A stretch of 20,000 nt of DNA, from the IMG/VR virus record IMGVR_UViG_3300024270_002537. One strand, 5' to 3'. Positions 5,306 through 18,596 of this stretch are shown here, one piece after another (position 1 is the first letter of the stretch; each line of letters begins with the position of its first letter). The DNA is from an uncultured virus (IMG/VR IMGVR_UViG_3300024270_002537) (Duplodnaviria > Heunggongvirae > Uroviricota > Caudoviricetes). The notes below the pieces were generated by a model. It was not told where the DNA came from. It worked only from the letters and a program-made list of their open reading frames with translations, and searched no databases. The position numbers and the translations under genes are program-made.

Positions 5306-5734
5306 ATGAAAGAATTTTGGAATGTGATTCAGATGGTGTTCACTGCGGTGGGCGGATGGCTCGGCTATTTTCTGGGCGGTTATGATGGTCTGTTGTATGC
5401 ACTGGTTGTGTTTATGGTGGCGGACTATATCACAGGTGTCATGTGTGCAGTTTCCGATAAGAAGCTGTCCAGTGCTGTGGGATTCAAGGGTATCTGCAGG
5501 AAGGTACTGATTTTGATGTTAGTAGGCATTGCAAATCTTCTGGATGTGGAGGTCATTGGAACAGGTGCAGTATTAAGGACTGCGGTTATTTTCTTCTATC
5601 TGTCCAATGAAGGTGTGTCCTTACTGGAAAATGCGGCACATCTTGGCTTGCCGATTCCGGAGAAGTTAAAGGCAATCCTGGCACAGCTCCATGACAGAGC
5701 AGAAGGGGATGGTGATGATAATGAAATTGGTTAA
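5306..5734 (+). CDS. Phage holin (toxin secretion/phage lysis holin, Phage_holin_4-type)
   Basis: Motifs 'DYITGV…KLSSAVGFKGI…K' and 'NEGVSLLENAAHLGLPIP', several hydrophobic segments, RBS GAGGT, overlaps the endolysin start. Confidence 0.93.
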   Translation: MKEFWNVIQMVFTAVGGWLGYFLGGYDGLLYALVVFMVADYITGVMCAVSDKKLSSAVGFKGICRKVLILMLVGIANLLDVEVIGTGAVLRTAVIFFYLSNEGVSLLENAAHLGLPIPEKLKAILAQLHDRAEGDGDDNEIG

Positions 5735-7223
5735 GAGTTTGCTGACAAGTAATCCGTGCTATAAAGCCGGAAAGAAGATTACAGTAAAGGGGCTTATGCT
5801 CCACAGCGTAGGGTGTCCTCAGCCGAGGGCATCCGTTTTTATTAACAGTTGGAATAGGGCAGATTATGACAATGCTTGTGTTCATGCATTCATTGATGGC
5901 AATGATGGAATTGTGTATCAGACCCTACCGTGGAATCACAGGGGTTGGCATGGTGGTGGTGCGTGCAACAATACCCATATCGGCGTGGAAATGTGCGAAC
6001 CGGCTTGTATCAAATATACCAACGGTTCAACATTTACCTGTTCCGACAAGGAGACTGCAAGGGCGGTTGCAAAGAGGACTTATGAAGCGGCTGTGGAACT
6101 GTTTGCCATGCTTTGTAAGGAGTATGACCTCAATCCTCTGGCAGATGGTGTTATCATCAGCCATGCAGAAGGCCATAAACGTGGGATTGCAAGTAATCAT
6201 GGAGACCCAGAACATCTGTGGAGACAGCTTGGTATGGGATATACTATGGATGGATTCCGTAAGGATGTAAAAACTACCATGAAAGAAAAAGTGTTAGGAA
6301 CACAGGCAACAGTATTTGCAAATCTTTCTGAAAAAGAAGTGATTGCAAAGGTAGGGGCACTGTTTACCGCTGATCAGAAGAAAAGCGGTATTTTGGCATC
6401 TGTTTCTCTTGCTCAGTTCATCTTGGAAAGCGGATACGGCAAAAGTGAACTTGCCCAGAGTGCCAATAACTGTTTTGGCATGAAAAAATCTTTGTCCGGC
6501 AATACATGGAGTGGTTCAGTGTGGGATGGAAAGTCTGTGTACACAAAGCAGACGAAAGAGCAGAATCCGGATGGTTCTTATGAAACTATCACAGCAGATT
6601 TCCGTAAATATGCATGCGTGGAGGATTCCATTGCAGACCACAGTGCTTATTTGCTTGGTGCCATGAATGGCAGTAAAAAGAGGTATGAGGGCATTGCCGG
6701 AATGACGGATTATAAGAAGGTTGTGCAGCTTATCAAGGATGGAGGGTATGCAACAAGCCTTACTTATGTGGAGAAACTGTGTTCCATTATCGAGAAGTGG
6801 AATCTGACACAGTATGATGTGAAAGAGACTGCTGCAGAACCGGAAAAGTGGTACAGAGTCCGTAAAACATGGGCAGATGCAAAGAGCCAGAAGGGTGCCT
6901 ATAAAGTGCTGAAGAATGCGAAAGCATGTGCAGATAAGAATGATGGATATTCTGTTTATGACTGGAATGGCAATGTGGTGTATGCACCATCAAAAACATC
7001 CGAGCCGGAGCAGAAAAAGGTTTCTTACCGTGTGCGTGTCAGCATCAAGAATCTGAATATCAGAAAAGGTCCTGGTACTCATTTTGCAAAGACGGGAGCA
7101 TATACTGGAGTGGGTGTGTTTACTATTGTTGCAGAGAGTGTAGGGCTTGGTTCTGAAAAAGGATGGGGCAAGCTGAAAAGTGGTGCTGGATGGATTAGTT
7201 TGGACTATGCGAAGAGAATTTAA
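5721..7223 (+). CDS. Endolysin: N-acetylmuramoyl-L-alanine amidase (Amidase_2) + GH73 glucosaminidase + cell-wall-binding repeat + SH3b-like domain
   Basis: Amidase motifs 'LMLHS', 'VHAFID', 'WH.G', 'GVEMCE', 'ISH…NHGDP'. GH73 motifs 'AQFILESGYG', 'NNCFGMK', 'FRKY', 'GYATS'. C-terminal 'WYRVRKTWADAKSQKGAY' and 'LNIRKGPGT…WGKLKSGAGWISLDY'. ATG 5721 (after GGTG) is preferred to the ORF-track start at 5691. Confidence 0.92.
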   Translation: MKLVKSLLTSNPCYKAGKKITVKGLMLHSVGCPQPRASVFINSWNRADYDNACVHAFIDGNDGIVYQTLPWNHRGWHGGGACNNTHIGVEMCEPACIKYTNGSTFTCSDKETARAVAKRTYEAAVELFAMLCKEYDLNPLADGVIISHAEGHKRGIASNHGDPEHLWRQLGMGYTMDGFRKDVKTTMKEKVLGTQATVFANLSEKEVIAKVGALFTADQKKSGILASVSLAQFILESGYGKSELAQSANNCFGMKKSLSGNTWSGSVWDGKSVYTKQTKEQNPDGSYETITADFRKYACVEDSIADHSAYLLGAMNGSKKRYEGIAGMTDYKKVVQLIKDGGYATSLTYVEKLCSIIEKWNLTQYDVKETAAEPEKWYRVRKTWADAKSQKGAYKVLKNAKACADKNDGYSVYDWNGNVVYAPSKTSEPEQKKVSYRVRVSIKNLNIRKGPGTHFAKTGAYTGVGVFTIVAESVGLGSEKGWGKLKSGAGWISLDYAKRI

Positions 7224-7342: not shown

Positions 7343-7370
7343 TTGAAAAAATGTGGAAGAGTATTATAAT
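7343..7370 (+). promoter_or_regulatory. SigA-type promoter for the nuclease cassette
   Basis: TTGAAA (7343-7348), 16-bp spacer, TATAAT (7365-7370). Implies the true start is ATG 7386 or 7407, not GTG 7353. Confidence 0.6.
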
Positions 7371-7406
7371 AAAGAAGAATACTATATGGAAGAATGTGAG
7401 ATAGAT

Positions 7407-8363
7407 ATGAAAGTTGATATTTTAGACATACATAAGGCGTGTTTGGATTTGTTGTTGGAATGCCAGTTAAAAGATGATAATTTCTATTTTGTGCCTCGCA
7501 AGATCAATAATAAGAATAGGTTAGAACAAGGAATGTACTTCCGGGGAAATGAGAATTATTTAGTTCTTTCATTTTGGGATAGTGCGGACACAAAGGAATT
7601 TATCTATAACATTAACTGGAGTTGTGATACTGATGGAGTATCTTCTATTGAATTGTCTTGCAGAGATAATGATGACGCACTTCCATATGTGATTGCAATA
7701 AAGGAGTTAATAGAATTATCTGGGAAAAAATTCAAGGAAACAAAGAAAAATAGATGGAGATATTTTTACCCAGAAAAAGAACATTACCTTGATACTCTTC
7801 AAGATTTTATTGCTCATGAGAAAGCTATAATTGATGACTATTTGAAAAAGCACCCAGAAAGTGGTATTCCTCTTGCAAGTAGTGATACTAATGATAAATA
7901 TGTAAAAACGCTTCCGTGTTATACGCAGTACATGGATAGTGTCAAAAAAGCTAAGAAGACAGGCAGTGTTAAAGTTAAAGCATCGGAGTATATAATGTCA
8001 TTGCAGCACAACGAACTGTCAAATGCAATGGTAGAATATCTTCAAAAGAATGGATATAAGAATGTCAAGGCTGAAGAAAATTTTGTTGATATCAAGTGTA
8101 TCGATCCTGCAGGAAAAATGATATTTTTTGAGTTGAAGACTGCCCAGACAGTAAAGTCTGCCATCAGAGAAGCCCTTGGTCAGTTGTTGGAATATAATCA
8201 TTACCCTAATACAAAGAAAGCAGATAAACTGATAATAGTAACAAAGCATGAACCGGAGAAATCTGATGTTCAGTATTTGCTGGGACTTAGGATGGTGTAC
8301 AATATTCCTGTCTATTATCAGTATTTTGACATGGGTAAAAAAGAATTATCGAAAGAGTATTAG
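7407..8363 (+). CDS. Protein with C-terminal PD-(D/E)XK-like (restriction endonuclease-fold) nuclease domain and uncharacterised N-terminal domain
   Basis: C-terminal 'HNELSNAM…EENFVDI…FFELKT…IREALGQLLEY' gives D…E-x-K plus the following helix typical of REase-fold nucleases. AT-richer than the phage genes. Start uncertain (7386 or 7407). Confidence 0.7.
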   Translation: MKVDILDIHKACLDLLLECQLKDDNFYFVPRKINNKNRLEQGMYFRGNENYLVLSFWDSADTKEFIYNINWSCDTDGVSSIELSCRDNDDALPYVIAIKELIELSGKKFKETKKNRWRYFYPEKEHYLDTLQDFIAHEKAIIDDYLKKHPESGIPLASSDTNDKYVKTLPCYTQYMDSVKKAKKTGSVKVKASEYIMSLQHNELSNAMVEYLQKNGYKNVKAEENFVDIKCIDPAGKMIFFELKTAQTVKSAIREALGQLLEYNHYPNTKKADKLIIVTKHEPEKSDVQYLLGLRMVYNIPVYYQYFDMGKKELSKEY

Positions 8364-8388
8364 TAAATAATGAAAAGGTGGAAAACTT

Positions 8389-8847
8389 ATGAACGAATTT
8401 CATAAATCATCATCTCATATACAGATTCAGGCCGAAGAATTGATATTTGGAGAGGTTGAAAAGCTTCTTGATATAAAACTGGATAAGAACCCAAAAATCT
8501 ATTTGGCGGATAATGCATTTACTTATATTCAACCAGATTTTTATTCCGAAAAGGAAAATGTTATAGGAGAAATCTTCGCACATATAGGAAAGCCTAAAAA
8601 AGCTCAAGATAACAAGATTGCTAATGATGTTCTAAAAATGCTCTTGTTAGAAAAAATAACAGGAAAGAACTTTAGGAAAATCATTGCAGTATGTGATGTT
8701 TCCGAAAAGAAAAAGCTACAAGGTCAATCTGTTCTGGCCGAAAGCATTCGTCGGTTTGATATTGAAATCATACACATTGAGATTGACGACGACCTGAGAA
8801 AACAAATTGTAGAAGCCCAAGAACTACAAAAAATGATAAATGCATAA
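8389..8847 (+). CDS. Small protein with divergent PD-(D/E)XK-like motif, 152 aa
   Basis: 'QAEELI…IQPDFYS…IGEIFAHIGKPKKAQDNKIANDVLKM': P-D…E present, canonical K replaced or displaced. RBS AAGGTGG, 25 bp after the previous gene. Confidence 0.5.
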   Translation: MNEFHKSSSHIQIQAEELIFGEVEKLLDIKLDKNPKIYLADNAFTYIQPDFYSEKENVIGEIFAHIGKPKKAQDNKIANDVLKMLLLEKITGKNFRKIIAVCDVSEKKKLQGQSVLAESIRRFDIEIIHIEIDDDLRKQIVEAQELQKMINA

Positions 8848-9287: not shown

Positions 9288-11171
9288 ATGATGAGAAAGA
9301 AAAAATGTTATATATACACCAGAGTATCCACGATGGCTCAGACAGAGGGTTACAGTTTGGAAGCACAAGTCGAAAGGCTCCGTGAATACGCTGAATATAG
9401 AAATTTGCAGATTGTTGGTGAATACTGTGACGCGGGTAAATCCGGAAAAAGCATAAAAGGAAGACCGGCTTTTCAGGAGATGATGGATGACATTGTAAAT
9501 GGGAAAGATGATGTTTCCTATGTGTTGGTATTCAAGTTATCCAGATTCGGAAGAAACGCTGCAGACGTTCTTAAATCCATGCAGTTACTGAATGATTATG
9601 ATGTGGATTTGGTATGTGTGGATGATGCGATAGATAGTTCCACACAGGGCGGAAGACTCACTCTGGCGATTCTCTCAGCCGTAGCCGAAATTGAGAGAGA
9701 AAACATAACCGTTCAGTTCAATGCCGGTAGGATGCAGAAAGTTTTGGAAGGTGGATGGCCTGGTGGACCAGTTCCGTATGGGTATAGAAACATCAAAAAA
9801 CAGATGCAGATTGAACCCACGGAAGCGGAGTTGGTTAAGAAAATGTTTGAAGCATTTCTTATAGATGGAATGACAACCACATCCGTAGCGGCTTATATGA
9901 ATGAACAAGGATACCGCAGAGTGATTAAAGGCGAAGAAAGACCATTTACCTATGACTTTGTTGCAAATGCGTTGGAGAATCCGTTTTATTGTGGAAAGAT
10001 TCTGTACGGGAAACGAAGTAAGAAAAAAGATGTCATGGTCATACAGGGGATTCATGAACCGATTGTAGATGAAGATTTATGGAAACAAGTGCAAGCGAAA
10101 AGAAAAGAATTATCTGTGAAATGGCAAAAGGTAGATGATCCTGAGCGAATCAGCATACTATCCGGTTTGGTTAAATGCCCGCTGTGTGGCAAAGGCATGA
10201 TTGCAACAAAGAATAAGCATGTGAATAAGAACAGAGGTGGTCATTATAAAACCATTCATTATTATTCATGTAGGAATCATCGTAAATCCAGTGGTCGTGA
10301 ATGTTCTTTTACTCGCCAACTTAATCAGTCAAAGATTGATTCCAGTGTGTTTGAAATCTTTTCTGGGATTACAGCGTTGCCGGAATACCATGAGATGATT
10401 GCGAATGTGCTAGGGAATCAGCCTTCTGTGGAACTATTGGAAAACGAATTGAAAGCCCTGAGGAAACAGCTTAGAAGTTATGAAACCCAGAAACGAAAAC
10501 TGGGAGAGGAGTTGGATGGGCTTGATATTCTGGATGATGATTATGATGAAAACTACGATAGGATACAGTCTGAGATGGATGAAATCTATGACAGAATGGA
10601 TGATGCAGAATCTGCTATATCGAAGATAAAAAAGAAACTGTCTGCGACTAAGAATGGAATCCGTTCTATTGAAAAGGTCAAGGAGTTGGTGGAACATATG
10701 CAGTTGCTCTTTCCTAAAATGACCTGTGACGAGCAAAAGGAGATGTACCGATTGTTCATTGAACGAATAGACATTTATCCGGAAGAACAAGATAATGGGA
10801 AGCTGATAAAAAGTATCACCTTTAAGTTTCCTGTTTATTATGAAGATTATGAGACAGTACCTACTAAAACACCGGATGATCAGATTGGATTTGTATTAGA
10901 TTGCAGTACATTAGGTCTGACGGTGGCAGAGGCAAAAGCAACATATGCAGAGATTAAAGCATATGTGAAAGAAAAGTATGGTGCTCCTGTTCATTCGTTA
11001 TATATTGCTCAGATTAAAAAGAAATATGGTTTGGACATGGGGGTAAATTACAACCTATCCAAAAAGGAAAATGCAAGAGTTCCGACCTGTCCTAAAGAGA
11101 AAGAGGCGTACATTGTGGATGCATTGAAACATTTTAGGATGTTGGACATGTCGGTGGAAATGGAGGCGTAG
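9288..11171 (+). CDS. Large serine recombinase 1 (resolvase + recombinase + Zn-ribbon + coiled coil) with extra C-terminal domain
   Basis: 'YTRVST' catalytic Ser, 'DAGKSG', 'FKLSRFGRN', 'GGPVPYGY', 'GIHEPIV', Zn ligands 'CPLCG…YYSC…C', coiled coil. Additional tail 'KATYAEIKAYVKEKYG…YIAQIKKKYG…CPKEKE…ALKHF'. Confidence 0.95.
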   Translation: MMRKKKCYIYTRVSTMAQTEGYSLEAQVERLREYAEYRNLQIVGEYCDAGKSGKSIKGRPAFQEMMDDIVNGKDDVSYVLVFKLSRFGRNAADVLKSMQLLNDYDVDLVCVDDAIDSSTQGGRLTLAILSAVAEIERENITVQFNAGRMQKVLEGGWPGGPVPYGYRNIKKQMQIEPTEAELVKKMFEAFLIDGMTTTSVAAYMNEQGYRRVIKGEERPFTYDFVANALENPFYCGKILYGKRSKKKDVMVIQGIHEPIVDEDLWKQVQAKRKELSVKWQKVDDPERISILSGLVKCPLCGKGMIATKNKHVNKNRGGHYKTIHYYSCRNHRKSSGRECSFTRQLNQSKIDSSVFEIFSGITALPEYHEMIANVLGNQPSVELLENELKALRKQLRSYETQKRKLGEELDGLDILDDDYDENYDRIQSEMDEIYDRMDDAESAISKIKKKLSATKNGIRSIEKVKELVEHMQLLFPKMTCDEQKEMYRLFIERIDIYPEEQDNGKLIKSITFKFPVYYEDYETVPTKTPDDQIGFVLDCSTLGLTVAEAKATYAEIKAYVKEKYGAPVHSLYIAQIKKKYGLDMGVNYNLSKKENARVPTCPKEKEAYIVDALKHFRMLDMSVEMEA

Positions 11172-11174
11172 GAA

Positions 11175-13247
11175 GTGAAAAGTAAAAGATTAAAATGTTA
11201 TATATACATCAGAGTATCAACCGCAATGCAGGTAGATGGATACAGTTTGGAAGCCCAGAATGATAGACTTACAAAATATGCAGAATTTCAGGGGATGGAA
11301 GTTGTTAAGGTTTATTGCGATGCTGGTAAATCCGGAAAGAACATTACAGGCAGACCGGAGTTCACACAGATGCTTCAGGATGTGGCGGATGGAAAAGATG
11401 GTGTTGATTACATTCTGGTATTCAAGTTATCGCGTTTTGGAAGAAATGCTGCTGATGTATTAAATTCATTGCAATACATACAAGATTTTGGTGTAAACCT
11501 TATCTGTGTGGAAGATGGAATTGATTCATCAAAGGACTCTGGAAAACTTACCATCACGGTATTATCTGCTGTTGCAGAAATTGAGCGTGAGAACATTCTG
11601 GTTCAGACAATGGAAGGAAGAAAGCAGAAAGCCAGAGAGGGAAAATGGAATGGTGGTCAGGCACCATTTGGGTACACACTGGATTCTAAGAACAGCACTC
11701 TGATTGTGAACCCGGAAGAAGCTGAATTGGTAAAACTCATTTATGAGAAATATGTATATGAAGACATGGGATTGGATACAATAGCAAACTTCCTGAATGA
11801 CCGTGGTTATAAAAAGAAGAAGACCAGAAGACGTGAATTGGATTATTTTACAAGGGGAACAGTAAAGAACATTCTGGACAATCCGGTATATGCGGGTAAA
11901 ATCGCATACGGGAAAAATGTTACCGAAAAGGTCAAGGGTACCAGAGACCAGTTCCGAAGAGTTAAGAGCGACGAATATCTTTTGGTAGATGGTCTCCATG
12001 ATGCCATCATTGATGAAGAATTGTGGATGCAGACCAAAGCCAAAAGAAAAATAACCGGGGTAAAATGGAACAAGACACATAGTCTGGAGCATGAACACAT
12101 TTTATCTGGCATTATAAAATGTCCGATATGTGGACATGGTCTGAGTGGTACGGTAAGACGTCGCAAGAATAAGAAAACCGGAGACTATGTGGATGATTTC
12201 TATTATCGCTGTCAACACAGACACAAGATTGATGACGAGCATTTTTGTAATTTTCAACCGTCTCTTAATCAGAATGATTTTAACCGTGAAGTGGAGCAAG
12301 TGATTCTGGATATGGTAAACCATGAGAGCTTCCGTCAATTTGTTATGGAGAAGGTTAATACAAAAGTTGATGTAAGTGCTCTGGAAGAAGAACGTGAGAG
12401 AATCAGAAAGTTGCTCAGACAGGTAATGGGGGCGAAAACAAAGCTCACAGACATGCTTGATAAACTGGATGTAATGGATAAGCATTATGACCGAAAGTAT
12501 CAGGACATGCATGACAGACTGGATAATCTGTATGATAAGATTTCCGAATATGAAGACAGCATTGCAGATATCACAGCGAGAATTGAAGCTGTATATGGAA
12601 ATCAGATTACCGGAAAGCAGATATATGACATTCTGGTACATTTTGAAATGATGTATTATAAAATGACGGACCTTGAAAAGAAAGAGTTTATGAAAGACTT
12701 CATAAACAGTATAGAACTTTATCCAGAAAAGATGTATAATGGAAGCATCGTGAAACAGATAAATTTTAAGTTCGGTGTTTATTATGAAGGGCAAGAAACT
12801 ATGGATATTCGGTTGCTCAACGAAAAAACAGTCGAGACAGTAGCATTATTAAGTCGGCAAATCAACGTGCATAAAATGAAGTTAAATTCTACACCTTTTG
12901 AAATGATAAAGAGCGGAGAAAAAACGATTGAACTCCGCTTGTTTGATGAAAAACGTCAACAAGTAAAAGTGGGTGACAAGGTTATTTTTACAAATACTAC
13001 TACCGGTGAAATGCTCAACAGAACCGTTGTAAAATTGCACCGTTTTGATAGCTTTGAAGAATTGTACAAGTCTTTGCCGCTTTTACAATGTGGATATACA
13101 GTAAGTGATGTTGACAGTGCAAAGCCATCTGATATGGAACAGTATTATTCAATTGAAGAACAGAATCAATATGGTGTTGTTGGAATCGAACTTTGTCGAC
13201 ATAAAGAAATTACAGACGAGAGTGTTTGTCTGTTGTCAAGAAAATAG
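11175..13247 (+). CDS. Large serine recombinase 2, fused in frame to a C-terminal ASCH domain
   Basis: GTG start with RBS GGAGG. Motifs 'YIRVST', 'DAGKSG', 'FKLSRFGRN', 'GGQAPFGY', 'GLHDAII', 'CPICG…YRC…C'. After 'VETVALLSR' the frame continues into an ASCH domain. Confidence 0.93.
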   Translation: MKSKRLKCYIYIRVSTAMQVDGYSLEAQNDRLTKYAEFQGMEVVKVYCDAGKSGKNITGRPEFTQMLQDVADGKDGVDYILVFKLSRFGRNAADVLNSLQYIQDFGVNLICVEDGIDSSKDSGKLTITVLSAVAEIERENILVQTMEGRKQKAREGKWNGGQAPFGYTLDSKNSTLIVNPEEAELVKLIYEKYVYEDMGLDTIANFLNDRGYKKKKTRRRELDYFTRGTVKNILDNPVYAGKIAYGKNVTEKVKGTRDQFRRVKSDEYLLVDGLHDAIIDEELWMQTKAKRKITGVKWNKTHSLEHEHILSGIIKCPICGHGLSGTVRRRKNKKTGDYVDDFYYRCQHRHKIDDEHFCNFQPSLNQNDFNREVEQVILDMVNHESFRQFVMEKVNTKVDVSALEEERERIRKLLRQVMGAKTKLTDMLDKLDVMDKHYDRKYQDMHDRLDNLYDKISEYEDSIADITARIEAVYGNQITGKQIYDILVHFEMMYYKMTDLEKKEFMKDFINSIELYPEKMYNGSIVKQINFKFGVYYEGQETMDIRLLNEKTVETVALLSRQINVHKMKLNSTPFEMIKSGEKTIELRLFDEKRQQVKVGDKVIFTNTTTGEMLNRTVVKLHRFDSFEELYKSLPLLQCGYTVSDVDSAKPSDMEQYYSIEEQNQYGVVGIELCRHKEITDESVCLLSRK
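12822..12860 (+). mobile_element. Putative attR junction of the prophage (RlmD/RumA 3'-end-like site)
   Basis: Encodes EKTVETVALLSRQ, resembling the RlmD/RumA C-terminal motif HVE(T/S)VxLLS. Firmicutes serine-integrase elements are known to target the rumA 3' end. Sits exactly where recombinase-like sequence ends. Confidence 0.6.
12870..13197 (+). other. ASCH (PUA-like) domain coding segment
   Basis: 'HKMKL…PFEMIKSGEKTIELRLFDEKRQQVKVGDKVIF…Y…EEQNQYGVVGIEL' carries the ASCH signature GxKxxExR. Confidence 0.88.
13206..13247 (+). mobile_element. Second RlmD/RumA-tail-like att motif
   Basis: Encodes EITDESVCLLSRK*. DNA gaaattacagacgagagtgt versus gaaaaaacagtcgagacagt at 12822; offset is exactly 384 bp. 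Confidence 0.55.
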
Positions 13248-13270
13248 TATGAATTTAGCAAAGGGGAAGT

Positions 13271-13633
13271 ATGATGAAGAGTGAAAAACAAGAAAGATAT
13301 TTAGACAACCTGTTGCTTAGAGGAATGGTGGATGTTCGTAAATTGGCCGGTGTTGCTAATGCGAAAAAACTTCCTAATGGTGAATTTGGTTTTTGTCTTA
13401 TGTGTCTTAATGGCAGTACTTTGAATCTTTATGATACTAATTTCGAACAAGAAGTGGGAGAACTTCTTTATTCTATAGATTTGAAAAAAATAGCAAATCT
13501 TAAAACAAGTTCATTTATATTAAATAGTTATATCAAATTTACTTATGAAGGATTCAACTACAAGTTAGCAGATTGTGCATATAAAGAACTCTATTCTGCA
13601 ATTGAAAAGGAAGTAAAAGATATTTTTAATTAA
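13271..13633 (+). CDS. Hypothetical protein, 120 aa
   Basis: RBS AAGGGG, AT-rich ORF with no motif I recognise. Confidence 0.7.
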   Translation: MMKSEKQERYLDNLLLRGMVDVRKLAGVANAKKLPNGEFGFCLMCLNGSTLNLYDTNFEQEVGELLYSIDLKKIANLKTSSFILNSYIKFTYEGFNYKLADCAYKELYSAIEKEVKDIFN

Positions 13634-13646
13634 GGAGAACTTGAAA

Positions 13647-13682
13647 TAGGGGATAAATCCAAAAACGTGGATTTATCCCCTA
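13647..13682. repeat. Perfect 15-bp inverted repeat (hairpin; terminator or recombination/binding site)
   Basis: TAGGGGATAAATCCA-aaaacg-TGGATTTATCCCCTA with no clean poly-T tract on the + strand. Confidence 0.8.
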
Positions 13683-13706
13683 AATTTATCTATGGTGAAA
13701 TATGTG

Positions 13707-13755
13707 TTGACTGTAGGTGTCAAGTGTCGTACAATTTATTTATGCAATGCATAAA
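13707..13755 (+). promoter_or_regulatory. SigA promoter with two palindromic operator candidates upstream of the HTH gene
   Basis: TTGACT (13707-12), 17-bp spacer, TACAAT (13730-35). TTGAC-n7-GTCAA overlaps the -35 box; TTTATGCA-a-TGCATAAA (13739-13755) abuts RBS AAGGAG. Confidence 0.7.
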
Positions 13756-13766
13756 GGAGACGATGT

Positions 13767-14003
13767 ATGGAAGCAAGAGAGGAATTAAGAAAATTAAGAG
13801 AAAGTACCGGTATGAACCGAAAAGAATTTTGCGAGTATTTTGAAATACCTTATATGACGGTGACAGACTGGGAATTGGGGAATAGAAGGGTTCCACCATA
13901 TCTTTTGCGATTGATGGCATATAAGATTCAGATGGAGAAACTGGCTGATAAGAAAGGTGAGAAATACGATGGAAGAAACTACAGGATTGATGACAGTAGA
14001 TAA
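13767..14003 (+). CDS. XRE/Cro-C1 family helix-turn-helix protein, 78 aa
   Basis: 'LRKLRESTGMNRKEFCEYFEIPYMTVTDWELGNRRVP' HTH_3 pattern; RBS AAGGAG. Confidence 0.9.
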   Translation: MEAREELRKLRESTGMNRKEFCEYFEIPYMTVTDWELGNRRVPPYLLRLMAYKIQMEKLADKKGEKYDGRNYRIDDSR

Positions 14004-14982
14004 AGTATGCAATCGAGTCTATATCATAAGAGGATAACAGGTTATGTTGGATTATGATTTGGCAGAAATTTATGGATATGAAGTGAAACGTTTAAATGAA
14101 CAAGTGAAACGTAATATTGCAAGGTTTCCGGAAGATTTTATGTTTCAATTAACAAAAGAAGAGATTGATTTCGTGAAGTCGCAATTTGCGACTTCACGAA
14201 AATATAATATGTATGAAGGCCAAGATGGTGGAAGAAGAAAAGCGCCATATGCATTTACAGAGCAAGGAATTTACATGCTGGCAACAGTGCTTAGAGGCGG
14301 ACTTGCAGAGCAACAAAGTATATTTATTATGCGTGCGTTTCGTGAGATGCGACATTATATAAAGCAGAATCAGCAGTTTGTCACTGAGTCGGAAATGAGG
14401 CTTGTAACAGCAAAAGTATCAGAAATATCGGTGCAGGTGGCAGAACTTTCGGATTGGAAAAAGAAAACAGAAAATGACATAGTGAGTATTCAAAAAAGCA
14501 TCGATATACTTAACGAAAATTTTGTGTCAGACAAGGATTTCAAAAGTTTTGTTATTTATAAAGGACAGAAATTTGAGGCGGATACAGCATACATAGATAT
14601 ATACCAGCAGGCAACGACAAGTATTTATGTGGTCGATGATTATATGAATACAAAGACATTGCAACTTTTATCGCAGAAGAAGCAGGGTGTGGAGGTTGCC
14701 TTGTTTACAGAGAACGGGCATGGTAGCAAAGGATTTCTGACATCGGCAGTTGTAAGTGATTTTATCAAGCAATATCCGCCACTTCGAATCAAATCAAATC
14801 CGGAGTGCCATGATAGACTAATTGTGATTGATTATGGCTTACCCACTGAACAAGTGTATCATTGTGGCGCATCCAGTAAGGATGCAGGTAAGAAATTGTG
14901 CGCCATAAACAGGATTGAGAATACAGAGATGATTCGTCCGGTGGTGGATAAATTGTTGTTGGGCGCGGATAAGGTTATTTGA
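13969..14982 (+). pseudogene. ORF6N-domain DNA-binding protein with C-terminal PLD-like fold, interrupted by in-frame TAA at codon 23
   Basis: RBS AAAGGTGA then ATG 13969: MEETTGLMTVDKVCNRVYIIRG*QVMLDYDLAEIYGYEVKRLNEQVKRNIARFPEDFMFQLT…SQFATS…GGRRKAPYAFTEQGIYMLATVL, the ORF6N pattern. TAA is at 14035-14037. C-terminal 'VVDDY…CHDRLIVID…YHCGASSKDAGKK' resembles a degenerate HKD fold. Confidence 0.8.
14169..14201. repeat. Perfect 33-bp palindrome within the ORF6N coding sequence
   Basis: TTTCGTGAAGTCGCAA-T-TTGCGACTTCACGAAA (16-bp arms, 1-nt centre). Confidence 0.95.
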
Positions 14983-15011
14983 TTTTTAACGAATGCAATT
15001 TGCGACTTTAA

Positions 15012-15077
15012 AAAGACCTCATAAACAGTATTGAACTTTGCTCATAAAAGATGGATAATGGAAGTGTTGTAAAACAG
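15012..15077 (+). pseudogene. Remnant of a serine recombinase 3' region
   Basis: 55/66 nt identical (hand alignment, ungapped) to 12693-12758 of recombinase 2. Reads KDLINSIELCS*KMDNGSVVKQ versus KDFINSIELYPEKMYNGSIVKQ. Confidence 0.85.
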
Positions 15078-15078
15078 T

Positions 15079-15360
15079 ATGCATCTGAACACGAGATTGA
15101 TATGTGATTATGGGCGTGGCATTGACAAATTCGAGGAGAGTAAAATTGTCCGTTTGGTGCAGGAAACCATTTTGAATGTTAAAAAGGCAGAGCTGTTTTA
15201 TGACGGATATGTCGGGGATTTGTTGTATGATACAACGAACGAATTGGTGGACTTGGACGAGTTAATGGACTGCTATCTTAATAGGAGCATAGTGAAACAT
15301 ACCGGTTTTGCAACACCGGAAGAAATAGTCATGCACTATATATTATCCGGATTATACTAA
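15079..15360 (+). CDS. 93-aa ORF, probably the detached N-terminal part of the RecQ-like gene
   Basis: Same frame as 15382-18093, separated only by TAA 15358-15360 and seven sense codons. No clear RBS at either start. Confidence 0.5.
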   Translation: MHLNTRLICDYGRGIDKFEESKIVRLVQETILNVKKAELFYDGYVGDLLYDTTNELVDLDELMDCYLNRSIVKHTGFATPEEIVMHYILSGLY

Positions 15361-15381
15361 TCTTTTCTGAAAGACGTAAAA

Positions 15382-18093
15382 ATGATGTTTCCGGTATTGG
15401 ATGAGGAGGAAGCAAGAATGCAACATATATTTCAATATGAACGGCATATGAACCTGGATCGTTCAAAGGGTGAAATAGTTCAAGGGATTCCTTGTGGAGT
15501 TGGAGATGCAGATTATGGATTTATGGTTATAGGAACCGGTAAACAAGACTTAAACAGGTCGGACTTTTATCCGACCCTTTTTGCATTGGTGTATAATTTT
15601 CTGATTAGAGATACATGTATTCAGAGAGAAAATTATCCGCAATATATGAAGACGCAGTTTTTCAATCATGAGCTGGATTATGGAAGAGTGTATCGATTTA
15701 TGATGATCTTGATTGACTTGCTTGAGACCGAGGGTGAGACAAAGTTATATTTAAACGTCATAGGAGATATGGATGAGTTCCGTGCGGCAGTGGATATTTT
15801 AAATGAATATTTGGGAGTTTTCGGAAGGTTGATAAAAACCAATCCGAGTTGGATAACAGTGGTACATGATAAAAATGGAAAAAGTATATCCGCTGAAACT
15901 CAAGCAGATTATTGTGTGGAAAATCATACAAAAGATTGTGGATTGAAGAGACGCATTCGGTATGGGAACAGAGTAAATTATAAACTGGATATATCTGACA
16001 AAGAAGATTTGGAGTTTTTGCTGAAAGAAATTTCACCATTTAAGACTTTTAAACGAGGACAGTTTGAAGCGTTATGTTCCATGATGAATTCGAATGGTCA
16101 TGCGGTTTGCATTATGCCGACCGGAAGCGGAAAATCATTGATTTATTACATGGCATGCCTTTTGCAACCGCAAGTGATATTTGTCGTGTCGCCGACAGAT
16201 ATTTTAATTAAAGACCAAATTAGAAATTTGCGTAAAATTCATCATTTTGATAATGTAACCTACTTGGATTTGAATTCGGACAACGATTTTGCATTCTTTC
16301 GTCCGGCCACTAATCTTATTTTCTTGACACCGGCGACATTTCAAAATCGCAATCTGTTCAGTGCATTCAAAAAATGGAAAAAAGAGATTGCGTATGTTGT
16401 TTTAGATGAAATTCATTGTTTGTCAAATTGGGGACATGATTTTCGACCGGAATATCTTATGTTATCAAAAAACATGAGTCAACATTTGGGGGATGCTCGC
16501 TATTTGGGATTTACTGCAACTGCAAATTATACGGTCGCGCAGGATATTCAAAAACAATTGAACATTCCGTTTGAAAATTTCTTTTCACCAATCTTGTTTG
16601 AAAAATATAATATTCGTTATGATTTTAGAGAAGCAGATTCTACAGAAGAAATGTTGCTGCAGGTGAAAGAAATCGGAAAAGAAATCGTGCGAAGAAATGG
16701 GCGTGCCATTGTGTTTACTAAAAATGACACCATATCGCAGCGGGTTGCAGATGCAATCGGATACGAGGCTGATGTGTTTACTGCGGAGGATACGGAAGCA
16801 TACATGCAGTTTGCTGAGGGCCTGTGCAGAATTCTGGTTACGAGTGAAGAACTTGGGATTGGAATTAATCTTCCAAACGTGAATTGCACGGTACATTTTG
16901 GGATGCCTGTTTCGAAAAACGAATATGTTCAGGAGATTGGAAGGGCAGGAAGGATGGGTGAAAAGACTACATCGTATGTGCTTTATCTGAAACCAACAGA
17001 AGGGAACATATCGAAACAGTTGTTGAGTAGGGAAACATCCATATCAGATGAATTTCAGTTGTTAGAAAACATGGAGAACGACTATGCAGACGTATATCGA
17101 AAACTATGCTGTAATACGGATTCAAGAGAAGTATTATCAGTACAACTGCGACATATCTTTGAAGAATTTCAAAAGAAGAAGCAGACAGCTTATATTGTTG
17201 CAAAACCCATAGAATATATGGAGCAATACAAGCGGTTGCTCTATATGCTTTATGTTACAGGATATGTGAAAGACTGGTATACAAACCGTGTGGTTGATGA
17301 AGGACGGCAGATAGAAGTGATTGTTGATATATGCTCAATCCTTAGGGCGGGGCATGAGGTTGCCGTTTTAGATGATGCTGACATGTTGGATAGAATGATT
17401 CATATTTCCAGAGACTATTTTGCATCTATGGGGAATGACCGCGAAAGCGTATTTTTTGTGAGCAGAGCTGAAAGTATTCCGGATATATTGGACATTTATG
17501 TGAAATGGTATTATGACAAATTTTTATATCATCACAAAGAACAGTTTCTGGATGTATTTGAATTTTTCGGGAATAACAGAGAGTGTGATGCTGTGAAAAT
17601 AACGGAAGAGATTGAGGATTATTTTACGCTGCCATTCATACAAATCAAAGAAGATGAAGCGTTTTACGGAAATTTATCGTTTGAAGAGGCTGCGGAACAA
17701 GTTCAAAATGGAATTGGGAAAAATACCTTGTCAAATTTAGAAAGAATTAACAGTGACAACTATTCTTACAAACTTGACTTTCTGCTTTTTGTAGGAAATT
17801 GGGGAAGATGGGGACATTTCGATGTGATGCGGTTGGAACGTTTTTGGGACACATTAAAGGAAGATGAAAAGAATGTGTTTTGGGGAGCATTGAAAGAAGT
17901 TTTTCCAAGGTGCACGTTGGACGCGAAGTGGAGATGTCTCAAATATATCGAAGAACATCAAGACTATCTTGGAATTGAATGGAAAGAATTTCTGGAAGAA
18001 ATTTATCAAAATGGGCCAAGAGATACACTATATTATGGGATTTTATCTGTGATATCAAATGAGAAATTTAGTGAATTTATGAGGAGAAAATAA
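15382..18093 (+). CDS. RecQ-family SF2 helicase with long N- and C-terminal extensions
   Basis: Q motif 'FKRGQFEAL', I 'MPTGSGKSLIY', II 'DEIH', aromatic loop 'WGHDFRPEY', III 'TATA', V 'GIGINLPNV', VI 'YVQEIGRAGR'. No obvious RQC Zn-Cys cluster or HRDC, so not the housekeeping recQ. Confidence 0.88.
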   Translation: MMFPVLDEEEARMQHIFQYERHMNLDRSKGEIVQGIPCGVGDADYGFMVIGTGKQDLNRSDFYPTLFALVYNFLIRDTCIQRENYPQYMKTQFFNHELDYGRVYRFMMILIDLLETEGETKLYLNVIGDMDEFRAAVDILNEYLGVFGRLIKTNPSWITVVHDKNGKSISAETQADYCVENHTKDCGLKRRIRYGNRVNYKLDISDKEDLEFLLKEISPFKTFKRGQFEALCSMMNSNGHAVCIMPTGSGKSLIYYMACLLQPQVIFVVSPTDILIKDQIRNLRKIHHFDNVTYLDLNSDNDFAFFRPATNLIFLTPATFQNRNLFSAFKKWKKEIAYVVLDEIHCLSNWGHDFRPEYLMLSKNMSQHLGDARYLGFTATANYTVAQDIQKQLNIPFENFFSPILFEKYNIRYDFREADSTEEMLLQVKEIGKEIVRRNGRAIVFTKNDTISQRVADAIGYEADVFTAEDTEAYMQFAEGLCRILVTSEELGIGINLPNVNCTVHFGMPVSKNEYVQEIGRAGRMGEKTTSYVLYLKPTEGNISKQLLSRETSISDEFQLLENMENDYADVYRKLCCNTDSREVLSVQLRHIFEEFQKKKQTAYIVAKPIEYMEQYKRLLYMLYVTGYVKDWYTNRVVDEGRQIEVIVDICSILRAGHEVAVLDDADMLDRMIHISRDYFASMGNDRESVFFVSRAESIPDILDIYVKWYYDKFLYHHKEQFLDVFEFFGNNRECDAVKITEEIEDYFTLPFIQIKEDEAFYGNLSFEEAAEQVQNGIGKNTLSNLERINSDNYSYKLDFLLFVGNWGRWGHFDVMRLERFWDTLKEDEKNVFWGALKEVFPRCTLDAKWRCLKYIEEHQDYLGIEWKEFLEEIYQNGPRDTLYYGILSVISNEKFSEFMRRK

Positions 18094-18095
18094 CG

Positions 18096-18596
18096 ATGAT
18101 TGGAACGATTGGAGATTTAGAAAGAGAAATTGAACAGTTTCAAAATAATATTGCGGCATCAGGGGAATTGGTGGCACTGTTAAGAGAAATGTTGAATTCG
18201 GTAAAAATGCAGGAACAAGTGTTTACTGACAAAATGACAATGTTACTTGCAAAAATAGATAGTACACCTGAAAGAATTGTTGCGGACAATTTAAAAATGC
18301 TCGAGAGCACAAAACGCGAATTGGATCAACTATTGTCAGAAAAAAATTACGCTTTTGCGTCTACGCAGGAAAGATTTGTATCTGCATTGGGAGAAACAAA
18401 AACAGAATTGAAAGAATGTGCAGAACAGTTGGAGAAAAAATATGCAAACTTTATAAATGTATTGGAAAGACTGAGAATTACAGACGTATATGAACAAAAT
18501 ATACAAATAAGAAATGAATTGAACAAAAGAACAAGGCTTCTTATGATTTTGTCAGGGGTAAGCGTGATTCTTGGAATTGTAGGTATTATCTTGTAA
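18096..18596 (+). CDS. Coiled-coil protein with C-terminal transmembrane helix, 166 aa
   Basis: RBS GAGGAG inside the helicase 3' end, 2-bp gap after its stop. E/K/L/Q-rich heptads; ends 'LLMILSGVSVILGIVGIIL*'. Confidence 0.8.
   Translation: MIGTIGDLEREIEQFQNNIAASGELVALLREMLNSVKMQEQVFTDKMTMLLAKIDSTPERIVADNLKMLESTKRELDQLLSEKNYAFASTQERFVSALGETKTELKECAEQLEKKYANFINVLERLRITDVYEQNIQIRNELNKRTRLLMILSGVSVILGIVGIIL

Follow-up and report, generated by a model that had tools for sequence, protein, structure and literature searches.

An in-frame ASCH cassette beside a prophage junction in the rlmD tail, a candidate for mobilization by large serine recombinases

The window analysed here is the whole 20,000-nucleotide stretch of the uncultured virus record IMGVR_UViG_3300024270_002537 (IMG/VR; Caudoviricetes), and our subject is a 384-bp segment encoding an ASCH domain at the 3′ end of one of its serine recombinase genes. 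The window contains the right part of a tailed prophage, with a tape-measure gene, tail genes, a holin at 5306 and an endolysin at 5691–7223. Downstream of the endolysin lie two tandem large serine recombinase (LSR) genes, LSR1 (9288–11171) and LSR2 (11175–13247), and 3′ of LSR2 come host- or island-looking genes and then a PEPCK gene from 18658. The features at and around the ASCH segment, with the basis for each in brackets, are as follows.

11175..12835, plus strand: phage-derived part of LSR2, ending at the GA (12834–12835) where phage meets host DNA (Pfam domains; divergence of viral loci)
12822..12860, plus strand: motif 1 (EKTVETVALLSRQ), prophage attachment site attR and left junction of the ASCH cassette (sequence; identity to the protein P0122 begins at VETVALLSRQ)
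12836..13219, plus strand: 384-bp ASCH cassette (TVALLSRQINVHKM..ASCH..RHKEITDE), on the host side of the prophage junction, without promoter, ribosome-binding site or stop codon of its own (conservation boundaries in 23 RlmD::ASCH loci, GC trough, DNA identity, dN/dS)
12853..12861, plus strand: left subterminal inverted-repeat arm GTCGGCAAA (repeat search; symmetry about GA)
12876..13193, plus strand: ASCH fold, MKLNSTPF...GVVGIEL (Pfam PF04266; phmmer against PDB)
13192..13200, plus strand: right subterminal inverted-repeat arm TTTGTCGAC, which departs from the consensus TTTGCCGAC at one position (arm comparison)
13206..13247, plus strand: motif 2 (EITDESVCLLSRK and stop), the cassette right end to the GA at 13218–13219 followed by the host rlmD tail and stop at 13220–13247 (conservation ends after ACAGACGA; tails genome-specific)

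The open reading frame (ORF) at 11175–13247 (plus strand) encodes 690 amino acids and includes the Pfam Resolvase (residues 9–158; PF00239, E 3.1e-40), Recombinase (180–292; PF07508, E 4.2e-22) and Zn_ribbon_recom (309–377; PF13408, E 4.4e-09) domains. LSR1 has the same three domains with similar values, and both genes thus have the domain set of a large serine recombinase. The ASCH domain of LSR2 follows at residues 569–636 (PF04266, 29 bits against a cut-off of 21.2). Within the ORF the order is EKTVETVALLSRQ, the ASCH domain, EITDESVCLLSRK and the stop codon, and the final 138 residues consist of VETVALLSRQ, INVHK, the ASCH domain and RHKEITDESVCLLSRK.

The two motifs that bracket the ASCH segment resemble each other. 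Their E codons are separated by 384 bp, or 128 codons, and when counted by hand in register, 8 of 13 residues and 21 of 39 bases agree, with the likeness concentrated in ACAG(T/A)CGAGA. With both strands of the window counted, the core ACAGHCGAGA occurs twice in all (12828 and 13212), compared with 0.07 occurrences expected, and two or more occurrences were found in 1 out of 200 shuffles. A loose peptide pattern of the motif matched motif 1 and motif 2 only across the six reading frames. No sigma-70-like site was found upstream of the ASCH ATG at 12876 (three sites in 12600–13700, compared with 4.5 expected), and no Shine-Dalgarno-like run can be read ahead of this ATG. The preliminary description of this locus, made from the sequence alone, had proposed an in-frame segment bracketed by related motifs and without an evident promoter or ribosome-binding site, and both proposals held. 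Searched with phmmer, the ASCH domain matched PDB entries 2z0t (E 2.2e-10), 1s04 and 1xne, and since these solved archaeal proteins align to residues 4–106 only, the cassette tail falls outside the ASCH fold. Short stand-alone homologs end at GIEL(C), so ASCH proteins do not natively end in an ESVCLLSRK-like tail.

By sequence comparison, the fusion of LSR2 to ASCH is shown to be a passive attR junction of the prophage, in a gene that would read RlmD::ASCH without the phage. Relatives of LSR2 were found at 60 viral loci in IMG/VR, six of which, on five contigs, are 97%–100% identical to LSR2. These six loci share sequence through ...ACAGTCGA (in protein, ...GAAAAAACAGTCGA) and then show four different continuations after GTCGA: the ASCH cassette, ETVALLSKQK.., ECVALLKRAE with a stop, and ETVALLSQQKPDD... 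The ASCH continuation is limited to the window-like contig, which is also the only 1 of the 60 viral loci in which ASCH accompanies an LSR2 relative, and a protein scan for ASCH likewise returned one viral contig. Close homologs of the recombinase therefore do not always carry ASCH, and neither this comparison nor those of the rlmD junction and of the native ASCH ends contradicted the preliminary description. LSR2-family recombinases at viral loci end in ..(E/K/N)TVE followed by variable tails of ETVxLLS type, and LSR2 itself has an attachment site inside its 3′ end and a C-terminus that changes with the insertion site.

The host form of the same gene end is present in P0122, an uninterrupted 583-amino-acid protein with TRAM, U5-methyltransferase (PF05958) and ASCH domains. 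Residues 553–690 of the window's protein (P0001) and 446–583 of P0122 are identical at 138 of 138 positions, from VETVALLSRQ to the stop, and the sequences upstream are unrelated. Because P0122 carries this identical end on RlmD without a phage, the ASCH segment is host-side DNA. The DNA past the crossover is then all host, and LSR2::ASCH is merely the attR reading frame continuing into a host gene; the cassette entered rlmD first and the phage later, so the recombinase fusion is incidental. Contigs assembled in Logan agree on the position of the break, with one contig from each of runs X1, X8 and X10 departing from the window sequence at 12838–12843, and two short contigs (X1 and X8), confined to 12807–12845, departing at 12841 and 12845. 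PF05958 was not found in five viral records of LSR2 relatives, which are trimmed records. Genes 3′ of 14 LSR2-family viral loci were mixed (ABC-3C, RhuM, IS200, STAND and proteins without assignment), and attP and attR forms cannot be told apart among them.

Fusions of this ASCH to RlmD are common in bacterial genomes. A genomic scan in which each species was represented by one genome located this ASCH at 56 loci, and at 23 of these it is fused in frame to a full-length RlmD (552–622 amino acids) at the same junction. The assignment to RlmD/RumA draws on P0122, with its TRAM and PF05958 domains, and on L011, the sole fusion scored, with 394.9 bits on TIGR00479 (rumA; cut-off 183.55); the window holds only the tail of the gene. 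At 19 RlmD::ASCH loci, the genes downstream are ordinary host genes, and neither phage nor recombinase genes occur there. The best 120 longer proteins with this ASCH comprised 103 of RlmD type, three LSRs (the window's own, P0125 and P0179) and 14 other proteins. The preliminary description had anticipated that ASCH would be joined to RlmD where the phage is absent, and had suggested looking for RlmD–ASCH and LSR–ASCH fusions; both kinds exist.

The comparisons strongly support the ASCH segment as a discrete foreign cassette that has spread horizontally among Oscillospirales and Lachnospirales and is under purifying selection. Within single ORFs, mean pairwise amino acid identity is 0.3–0.6 before motif 1 and 0.7–0.87 after it, and third-position identity rises from approximately 0.3 to 0.55–0.65. 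Of the identical residues, a fraction of 0.39 share the same codon in rlmD, compared with 0.60 in ASCH. Base composition changes at the same point. The G+C content at third codon positions (GC3) of rlmD tracks the composition of the host (0.29–0.75), while the ASCH part has a constant G+C content (GC) of about 0.32–0.38, and the cassette is approximately 35% GC even within genes of 57%–60% GC. In GC-rich hosts, GC3 was 0.59–0.73 in rlmD versus 0.25–0.38 in the cassette (0.73 versus 0.38 in L023, 0.66 versus 0.30 in L010 and 0.66 versus 0.28 in L003). This trough is confined to approximately 390 bp, with host-level GC at either side. Metagenome contigs, scanned at the protein level, added 12 loci with at most 68% identity, apart from a 67-residue fragment (L167) at 79%, and one case among them (L158/L159) shows the same contrast, with 0.66 GC in the rlmD flank versus 0.40 in ASCH.

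Cassette DNA is also far more alike between genomes than the gene that holds it. Identity reached 0.96 between genomes with rlmD DNA at 0.46–0.52, and the cassette was more similar than rlmD in all 253 of 253 pairs. For 14 ‘young’ cassette copies (91 pairs), the proportion of synonymous differences (pS) was 0.48 in the cassette versus 0.79 in rlmD, which was saturated in 78 of the 91 pairs. The ratio of nonsynonymous to synonymous rates (dN/dS) for ASCH in these copies was approximately 0.10, which indicates that the domain is kept by selection. The distribution within a single family is patchy. In a sample of 151 genomes of one family, RlmD was present in 140, any ASCH of the cassette family (E ≤ 1e-10) in 10, and ASCH matches of at least 69% identity in three, two of which (G007 and G022) are in-frame RlmD fusions. 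The nearest RlmD orthologs in this sample are plain 470-amino-acid genes ending in HVE and a short tail. An ASCH tree (54 rows, 107 columns, quick method) was poorly resolved, with 30 of 51 forks open, and we draw no origin from it.

The cassette has sharp ends at both sides. At the left end, the conserved R ACG GTA GCA TTA TTA AGT CGG CAA ATC AAC GTG CAT AAA ATG comes after the host codons CAY GTN GA, and at the right end, genome-specific tails come after the conserved CGA CCT AAA SAA ATY ACA GAC GA. These tails differ even between cassettes that are 92%–94% identical (L003 versus L007 and L010 versus L014). The unit is thus TVALLSRQINVHKM..ASCH..RPK.ITDE, exactly 384 bp, with the original rlmD tail and stop of the host next to it. 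Among the 23 fusions, 15 have an intact right end of ITDE type, three have a decayed one (L015 is frameshifted, and L029 and L030 stop prematurely), four have none (L028, L035, L043 and L044), and one (L033) is cut by the contig end. The GA at which the cassette ends is also that of the phage crossover, and either end combines a host-like with an element-like arm. The right end of the cassette, ACAGACGA, matches the LSR2 arm ACAGTCGA except at one base.

Inside these ends, the cassette has an inverted repeat, which in L011 reads GTCGGCAAA/TTTGCCGAC and in L013 is 13 nt long with 92% complementarity. The arms are equidistant from GA (best offset 2, with 22 of 43 positions matching), and conserved cassette DNA reaches 17–19 nt past the repeats to the GA on both sides. 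Joining the cassette ends would give a dyad of approximately 54 bp around a central GA. A dyad of this length about a central dinucleotide is the layout of a serine-integrase attP. No target-site duplication was visible at the rlmD junctions, and DNA scans for the cassette left arm gave no matches in viral contigs and none in metagenome contigs.

Copies of the cassette are not limited to rlmD. P0152, a CopA-like ATPase, and P0165, a ribokinase-like protein, each have a mid-gene ASCH. The parts of P0152 on either side of ASCH align to consecutive parts of PDB 3j09_A (query 131–497 to chain 111–465, and query 619–874 to chain 463–711), and those of P0165 do the same with 6znx_A (query 3–204 to chain 2–206, and query 324–418 to chain 203–296). 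In both, the host protein is continuous, no host residues are lost and the ASCH block is an in-frame addition, so these proteins are not chimeric assemblies. A third protein, P0147, shows a similar-looking insertion in a host protein without assignment. A candidate sequence common to the secondary sites of the three proteins may be ACNGTNGA.

The host tail at the right end of the cassette is also used by a different insert. An 81-nt contig from run X8 (depth 3) matches 13218–13277 with no differences, and its 21 letters ahead of 13218 are identical to the right end of an APH-like insert without a recombinase in L017. The switch at 13218 indicates that another cassette abuts the same host tail at the base placed here as the ASCH right boundary.

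We consider it probable that the locus is a prophage attR at the rlmD tail, beside an ASCH cassette that was inserted in frame earlier, that is moved by LSRs and that serves RlmD as an accessory. Under this explanation, the prophage would integrate at the known attachment site in the rlmD/rumA tail, with the phage half of the site inside the 3′ end of LSR2 and the crossover at or beside the GA of ...ACAGTCGA (12834–12835). In an earlier event, strongly supported by the comparisons, the AT-rich cassette of 384 bp (12836–13219) entered the rlmD tail in frame at this same GA. It brought its own copy of the tail codons (TVALLSRQ) together with the whole ASCH domain, and its right end (RPK.ITDE, ...ACAGACGA) is similar to the 3′ end of LSR2. 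Since it lacks a promoter, ribosome-binding site, stop codon and recombinase, the cassette is expressed solely as a translational fusion. Movement would be by site-specific recombination, with rlmD-tail-specific large serine recombinases acting in trans. A first route would be a small circle, whose joined ends form the attP-like dyad about GA; a second would be in cis, by accretion with a larger element, as in cis-mobilizable elements (CIMEs), and a phage accreted at the left site of the cassette is the layout seen in the window. Mobilization of the cassette by such recombinases, through a circle in trans or through accretion, seems somewhat favored.

The appended ASCH would serve RlmD as an accessory RNA-binding module. 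ASCH has a PUA-like fold, which is usually linked to RNA binding. Its strong conservation, the older RlmD fusions and its adjacency to a second U5-methyltransferase gene (L001, L025 and L031) suggest that ASCH probably has an accessory role with RlmD. In those three loci, a stand-alone ASCH lies directly upstream of a second, TRAM-less U5-methyltransferase gene (L001 10397–11605, L025 6319–7473 and L031 9720–10874), and rlmD lies one or two genes upstream of the pair. At the level of gene order, ASCH keeps company with the U5-methyltransferase family in more than one layout.

Several observations weigh against this explanation. The attL of the prophage was not seen; an rlmD 3′ end there has indirect support from the intact RlmD::ASCH protein P0122. 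The mean pS of 0.48 means that many transfers are not recent, and the four fusions without the ITDE end (L028, L035, L043 and L044) have host-like GC, so some fusions may be old and vertical. By our estimate, the 9-nt inverted repeat alone is near chance for a region of 460 bp (approximately 0.4), and its weight comes from its symmetric position, which was noticed post hoc. The CopA insert is apparently one codon shorter than a simple exchange of GA for GA predicts, and the ribokinase insert has extra residues at its left end; read at the protein level without DNA, these junctions are not reconciled with a single mechanism. Logan contigs of four runs gave no circle, precise cassette loss, phage-free junction or joints, although such contigs cannot show rare forms, and no pair of empty and occupied sites was seen within one strain. 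Searching for a recombinase with a 3′ end matching the cassette right arm returned 15 viral-contig matches, all unrelated proteins that read PKEITD. Because no excision, circle or recombinase activity on the cassette was seen, the attachment-site-based domain-swapping ‘system’ of the preliminary description is still inferential.

Some of these observations would fit a cassette that is a dead relic, a CIME-like scar spread through homologous recombination or natural transformation of the rlmD 3′ region. The lack of an observed recombinase, circle or empty site, the appreciable age implied by pS and the decayed copies (the frameshift in L015 and the premature stops in L029 and L030) are all as expected of a relic. 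However, with rlmD flanks at 46%–52% identity beside cassettes at 92%–96%, flank divergence is far too great for homologous exchange, and the break is confined to one dinucleotide. Insertions in unrelated genes, and the different insert that run X8 shows joined to this host tail at an identical base, also speak against a relic, and purifying selection on ASCH means that the copies are not mere scars. We regard this alternative as unlikely.

The ASCH segment could instead be phage cargo, a moron fused to the integrase, with the prophage boundary at motif 2 and the phage delivering ASCH to its hosts. LSR::ASCH fusions recur (P0125, P0179, L021 and P0043), the right end of the cassette is like the LSR2 3′ arm, and the window-like viral contig does contain ASCH. 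Yet five of the six viral loci with 97%–100% identical LSR2 diverge right after GTCGA and have no ASCH, which is present in only 1 of the 60 LSR2-family viral loci; P0122 has the same ASCH and tail on RlmD without a phage, and host genes follow the 19 RlmD::ASCH loci. Cargo carried by the phage is thus very unlikely.

A further alternative is that RlmD in this lineage has inherited ASCH vertically as an ordinary C-terminal domain, with motif 2 as the native end of the fusion protein and the likeness to motif 1 due to chance or convergence. RlmD::ASCH proteins occur often (at 23 of the 56 loci, and as 103 among the best 120 longer proteins), L028, L035, L043 and L044 have host-like GC and no second motif, and the position of ASCH beside a second U5-methyltransferase gene hints at a functional link. 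Vertical inheritance does not explain a composition break inside one ORF (GC3 of 0.73 versus 0.38 in L023 and 0.66 versus 0.30 in L010), nor cassette DNA 92%–96% identical beside rlmD approximately 50% identical. It is equally at odds with the rarity of matches reaching 69% identity or more (in 3 of the 151 genomes of the family sample, versus 140 of 151 for RlmD), with the tails after ITDE that differ between near-identical cassettes, with in-frame copies inside unrelated genes and with an ASCH fold that stops short of the tail. For the ‘young’ cassettes, this alternative is largely refuted, and as a general account it is highly improbable.

Least probable is a miniature inverted-repeat transposable element (MITE), a non-autonomous transposon dependent on a DDE transposase, or else an intein or self-splicing insert: inverted repeats of 9–13 nt lie near both ends and the insertions keep the reading frame, but the repeats are subterminal, with conserved DNA for 17–19 nt beyond them to the GA on each side and no target-site duplication visible at the rlmD junctions, no Rfam match was found in 12600–13500, the fold is ASCH rather than Hint, and the protein ends in ITDE, not in the end motif generally known for inteins. 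A self-splicing intron was rejected on the same Rfam result. Nor does the cassette classify as a MITE or as an element derived from an insertion sequence (IS), with repeats away from the extreme termini and no duplication at the rlmD junctions.

If a prophage attR beside an earlier, recombinase-mobilized cassette is the right explanation, it may be one case of a broader arrangement. Tentatively, and with somewhat less than even confidence, we propose that the rlmD tail of gut and rumen Clostridia is an integron-like landing pad, run by large serine recombinases, that exchanges a pool of cassettes without recombinases, with ASCH as a pure ‘protein-domain graft’. In this arrangement, the ASCH cassette, with no expression signals, 128 codons and an open frame, may fuse to RlmD, to an integrase or to genes with look-alike sites (CopA and ribokinase). 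A tiny unit without recombinase, promoter or stop carries a complete domain between distantly related bacteria and is expressed by in-frame fusion only. If the mechanism is true, single domains could pass horizontally between genomes through site-specific recombination (‘domain grafting’), and it would account for odd ASCH ends on annotated RlmD, integrase and other proteins of gut Clostridia. It would also provide natural attP-like and attB-like pairs (approximately 54 bp) for seamless in-frame insertion by serine integrases, of practical interest for protein tagging. For annotation, LSR::ASCH ‘fusion proteins’ should be taken as junction artefacts of lysogeny.

We made additional observations at loci with this ASCH. 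Genes without a recombinase lie between rlmD and ASCH in L017 (8835–9960), L025 (5336–5959) and L031 (8098–9363), and include APH-like, CAT-like and PD-(D/E)XK nuclease genes. Taken together, these inserts resemble a stacked array, and the one in L017 terminates in an att-like arm (..CCTAAAGGGACAACTGTGGA) immediately ahead of the ASCH cassette. In L001 (9433–9990), L018 (9447–9980) and L019 (9444–9989), a conserved block rich in GCGATAT repeats comes right after the rlmD tail, which reads ..DINS and stop; in L022 (9395–9989), the block lies behind a sortase-like gene rather than rlmD. It encodes a four-helix-bundle protein of the 23S-rRNA intervening-sequence type (TIGR02436, PF05635), and a stand-alone ASCH is always next to it. 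Further fusions, either beyond ASCH or to different partners, include ASCH::GNAT, RlmD::ASCH::GNAT and DUF559::ASCH (L017 9956–10873; P0163; P0230; L034 9527–10345).

The rest of the window includes a second recombinase and a group of host-side genes.

9288..11171, plus strand: LSR1, first tandem large serine recombinase of the prophage (Pfam Resolvase, Recombinase, Zn_ribbon_recom)
13271..18596, plus strand: host-side genes after the rlmD tail, namely an ORF of 120 amino acids without assignment, an ORF6N/PDC-S05-like gene, a DpdF/PsyrT-like helicase and a small coiled-coil/transmembrane protein (Pfam, PADLOC)

The best NCBIfam matches of LSR1 were CcrB and XisF, all under cut-off. Its C-terminus (10845–11168) is a domain of its own of approximately 93 amino acids, KATYxEIKxYV..SLYIAQ(V/I)K..CPxEKE, which forms the native end of LSR1 and has no Pfam match at E ≤ 0.01. 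These 93 residues are 57% identical (E 9e-36) to the extension after ETVVLLSQ in an LSR2-family gene (L081, 5633–5953). The domain follows ETVxLLS in many LSR2-family genes (L064, L065, L067–L069, L076, L088, L092, L101, L106 and L110) and also terminates some RlmD proteins (L121, L127 and L133). It may be the native C-terminal domain of the integrase in its excised form, passed to RlmD upon integration.

Genes predicted to be involved in defence lie on both sides of the recombinases. Directly 3′ of the rlmD tail, the ORF6N protein at 14044–14982 matches the candidate defence family PDC-S05 (E 6e-103), and a 903-amino-acid helicase at 15382–18093 matches DpdF/PsyrT models (E 2e-57). The genes at 13271–18596 are probably a defence islet at the same hotspot, outside the ASCH cassette. 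Within the phage, the interval between endolysin and recombinases (7353–8847) encodes a protein of 336 amino acids, with a PtuA-like N-terminal match (E 3e-20) and a weak TdeIII-like match, and a 152-amino-acid partner without assignment; these may be an accessory or defence pair. In viral contigs, a tyrosine integrase, an IS200 transposase and ABC-3C parts occur 3′ of LSR2-family genes (L105 1971–3041; L067 5454–5858; L074 7912–9355), which points to tandem elements, along with defence cargo, at this same site.

The locus shares features with several known systems. The passages of Ambroset et al. (2016; PMC4701971) on rumA describe serine integrases that target this gene, in which attR lies inside the integrase gene and integration swaps the 3′ parts of rumA and the integrase gene. 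The window resembles these integrative and conjugative elements (ICEs) as well as integrative and mobilizable elements (IMEs) of Firmicutes, as portrayed there and in the corresponding passages of Guedon et al. (2017; PMC5704250), in that the 3′ part of rumA is the target, the attachment site lies in the integrase gene and both C-termini change. Unlike the rumA/rlmD ICEs and IMEs of those passages, the window's element is a tailed prophage with two tandem LSRs, and its integrase gains a whole folded ASCH domain, itself an earlier insertion without a recombinase at the same site.

CIMEs are a second close parallel. The relevant part of PMC5704250 presents them as integrase-less segments with attL- and attR-like ends, at one of which an incoming element can integrate to give tandem forms. 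The layout of the window is of this kind, with an element accreted at one attachment site of an integrase-less segment, and the cassette has attL/attR-type flanks around a single ORF segment of 384 bp with no integrase or transfer genes. Unlike CIMEs as that part presents them, the ASCH segment is only 384 bp, is one promoterless domain in frame with its target and has serine-recombinase sites; it is also widespread (up to 96% DNA identity), under purifying selection and present in frame inside other genes.

Integrons, inserted palindromes and free ASCH proteins provide further comparisons. Integron gene cassettes are small, promoterless, single-ORF units without a recombinase that are gathered at one site, with an attC hairpin, a tyrosine recombinase IntI and a platform promoter. 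The recombinase-less genes (APH-like, CAT-like and PD-(D/E)XK) between rlmD and ASCH in L017, L025 and L031 resemble them, but the ASCH cassette has no attC hairpin or tyrosine IntI and is expressed by translational fusion. We did not classify it as an integron cassette: its repeat structure is only the split 9–13-nt inverted repeat about GA, and the adjoining recombinases are of serine type, with no search made for IntI elsewhere. Rickettsia palindromic elements are selfish in-frame inserts in protein-coding genes, made of shorter palindromic repeats that encode no known fold. The ASCH cassette is likewise translated in frame within its host protein, but it is a complete conserved domain with att-like ends. 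Stand-alone ASCH proteins (2z0t, PH0355; 1s04, PF0455; 1xne, PF0469; PF04266) have the same fold over residues 4–106; unlike them, the cassette form lacks its own translation signals and is extended on either side by att-derived sequence.

In the literature searched (supplements and subscription journals being outside its scope), no link between ‘ASCH domain’ and ‘serine recombinase’ was found, and ASCH and rlmD co-occurred only in unrelated papers. Judged from the listings, there was also no description of recombinase-less cassettes at the rlmD tail. As far as the cited passages go, serine-recombinase integration in rumA with exchange of gene ends (PMC4701971) and the concept of CIMEs and accretion (PMC5704250) were already known. 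What is new within this literature is a CIME-like cassette, bounded by serine-recombinase attachment sites, that is reduced to a single in-frame protein domain.

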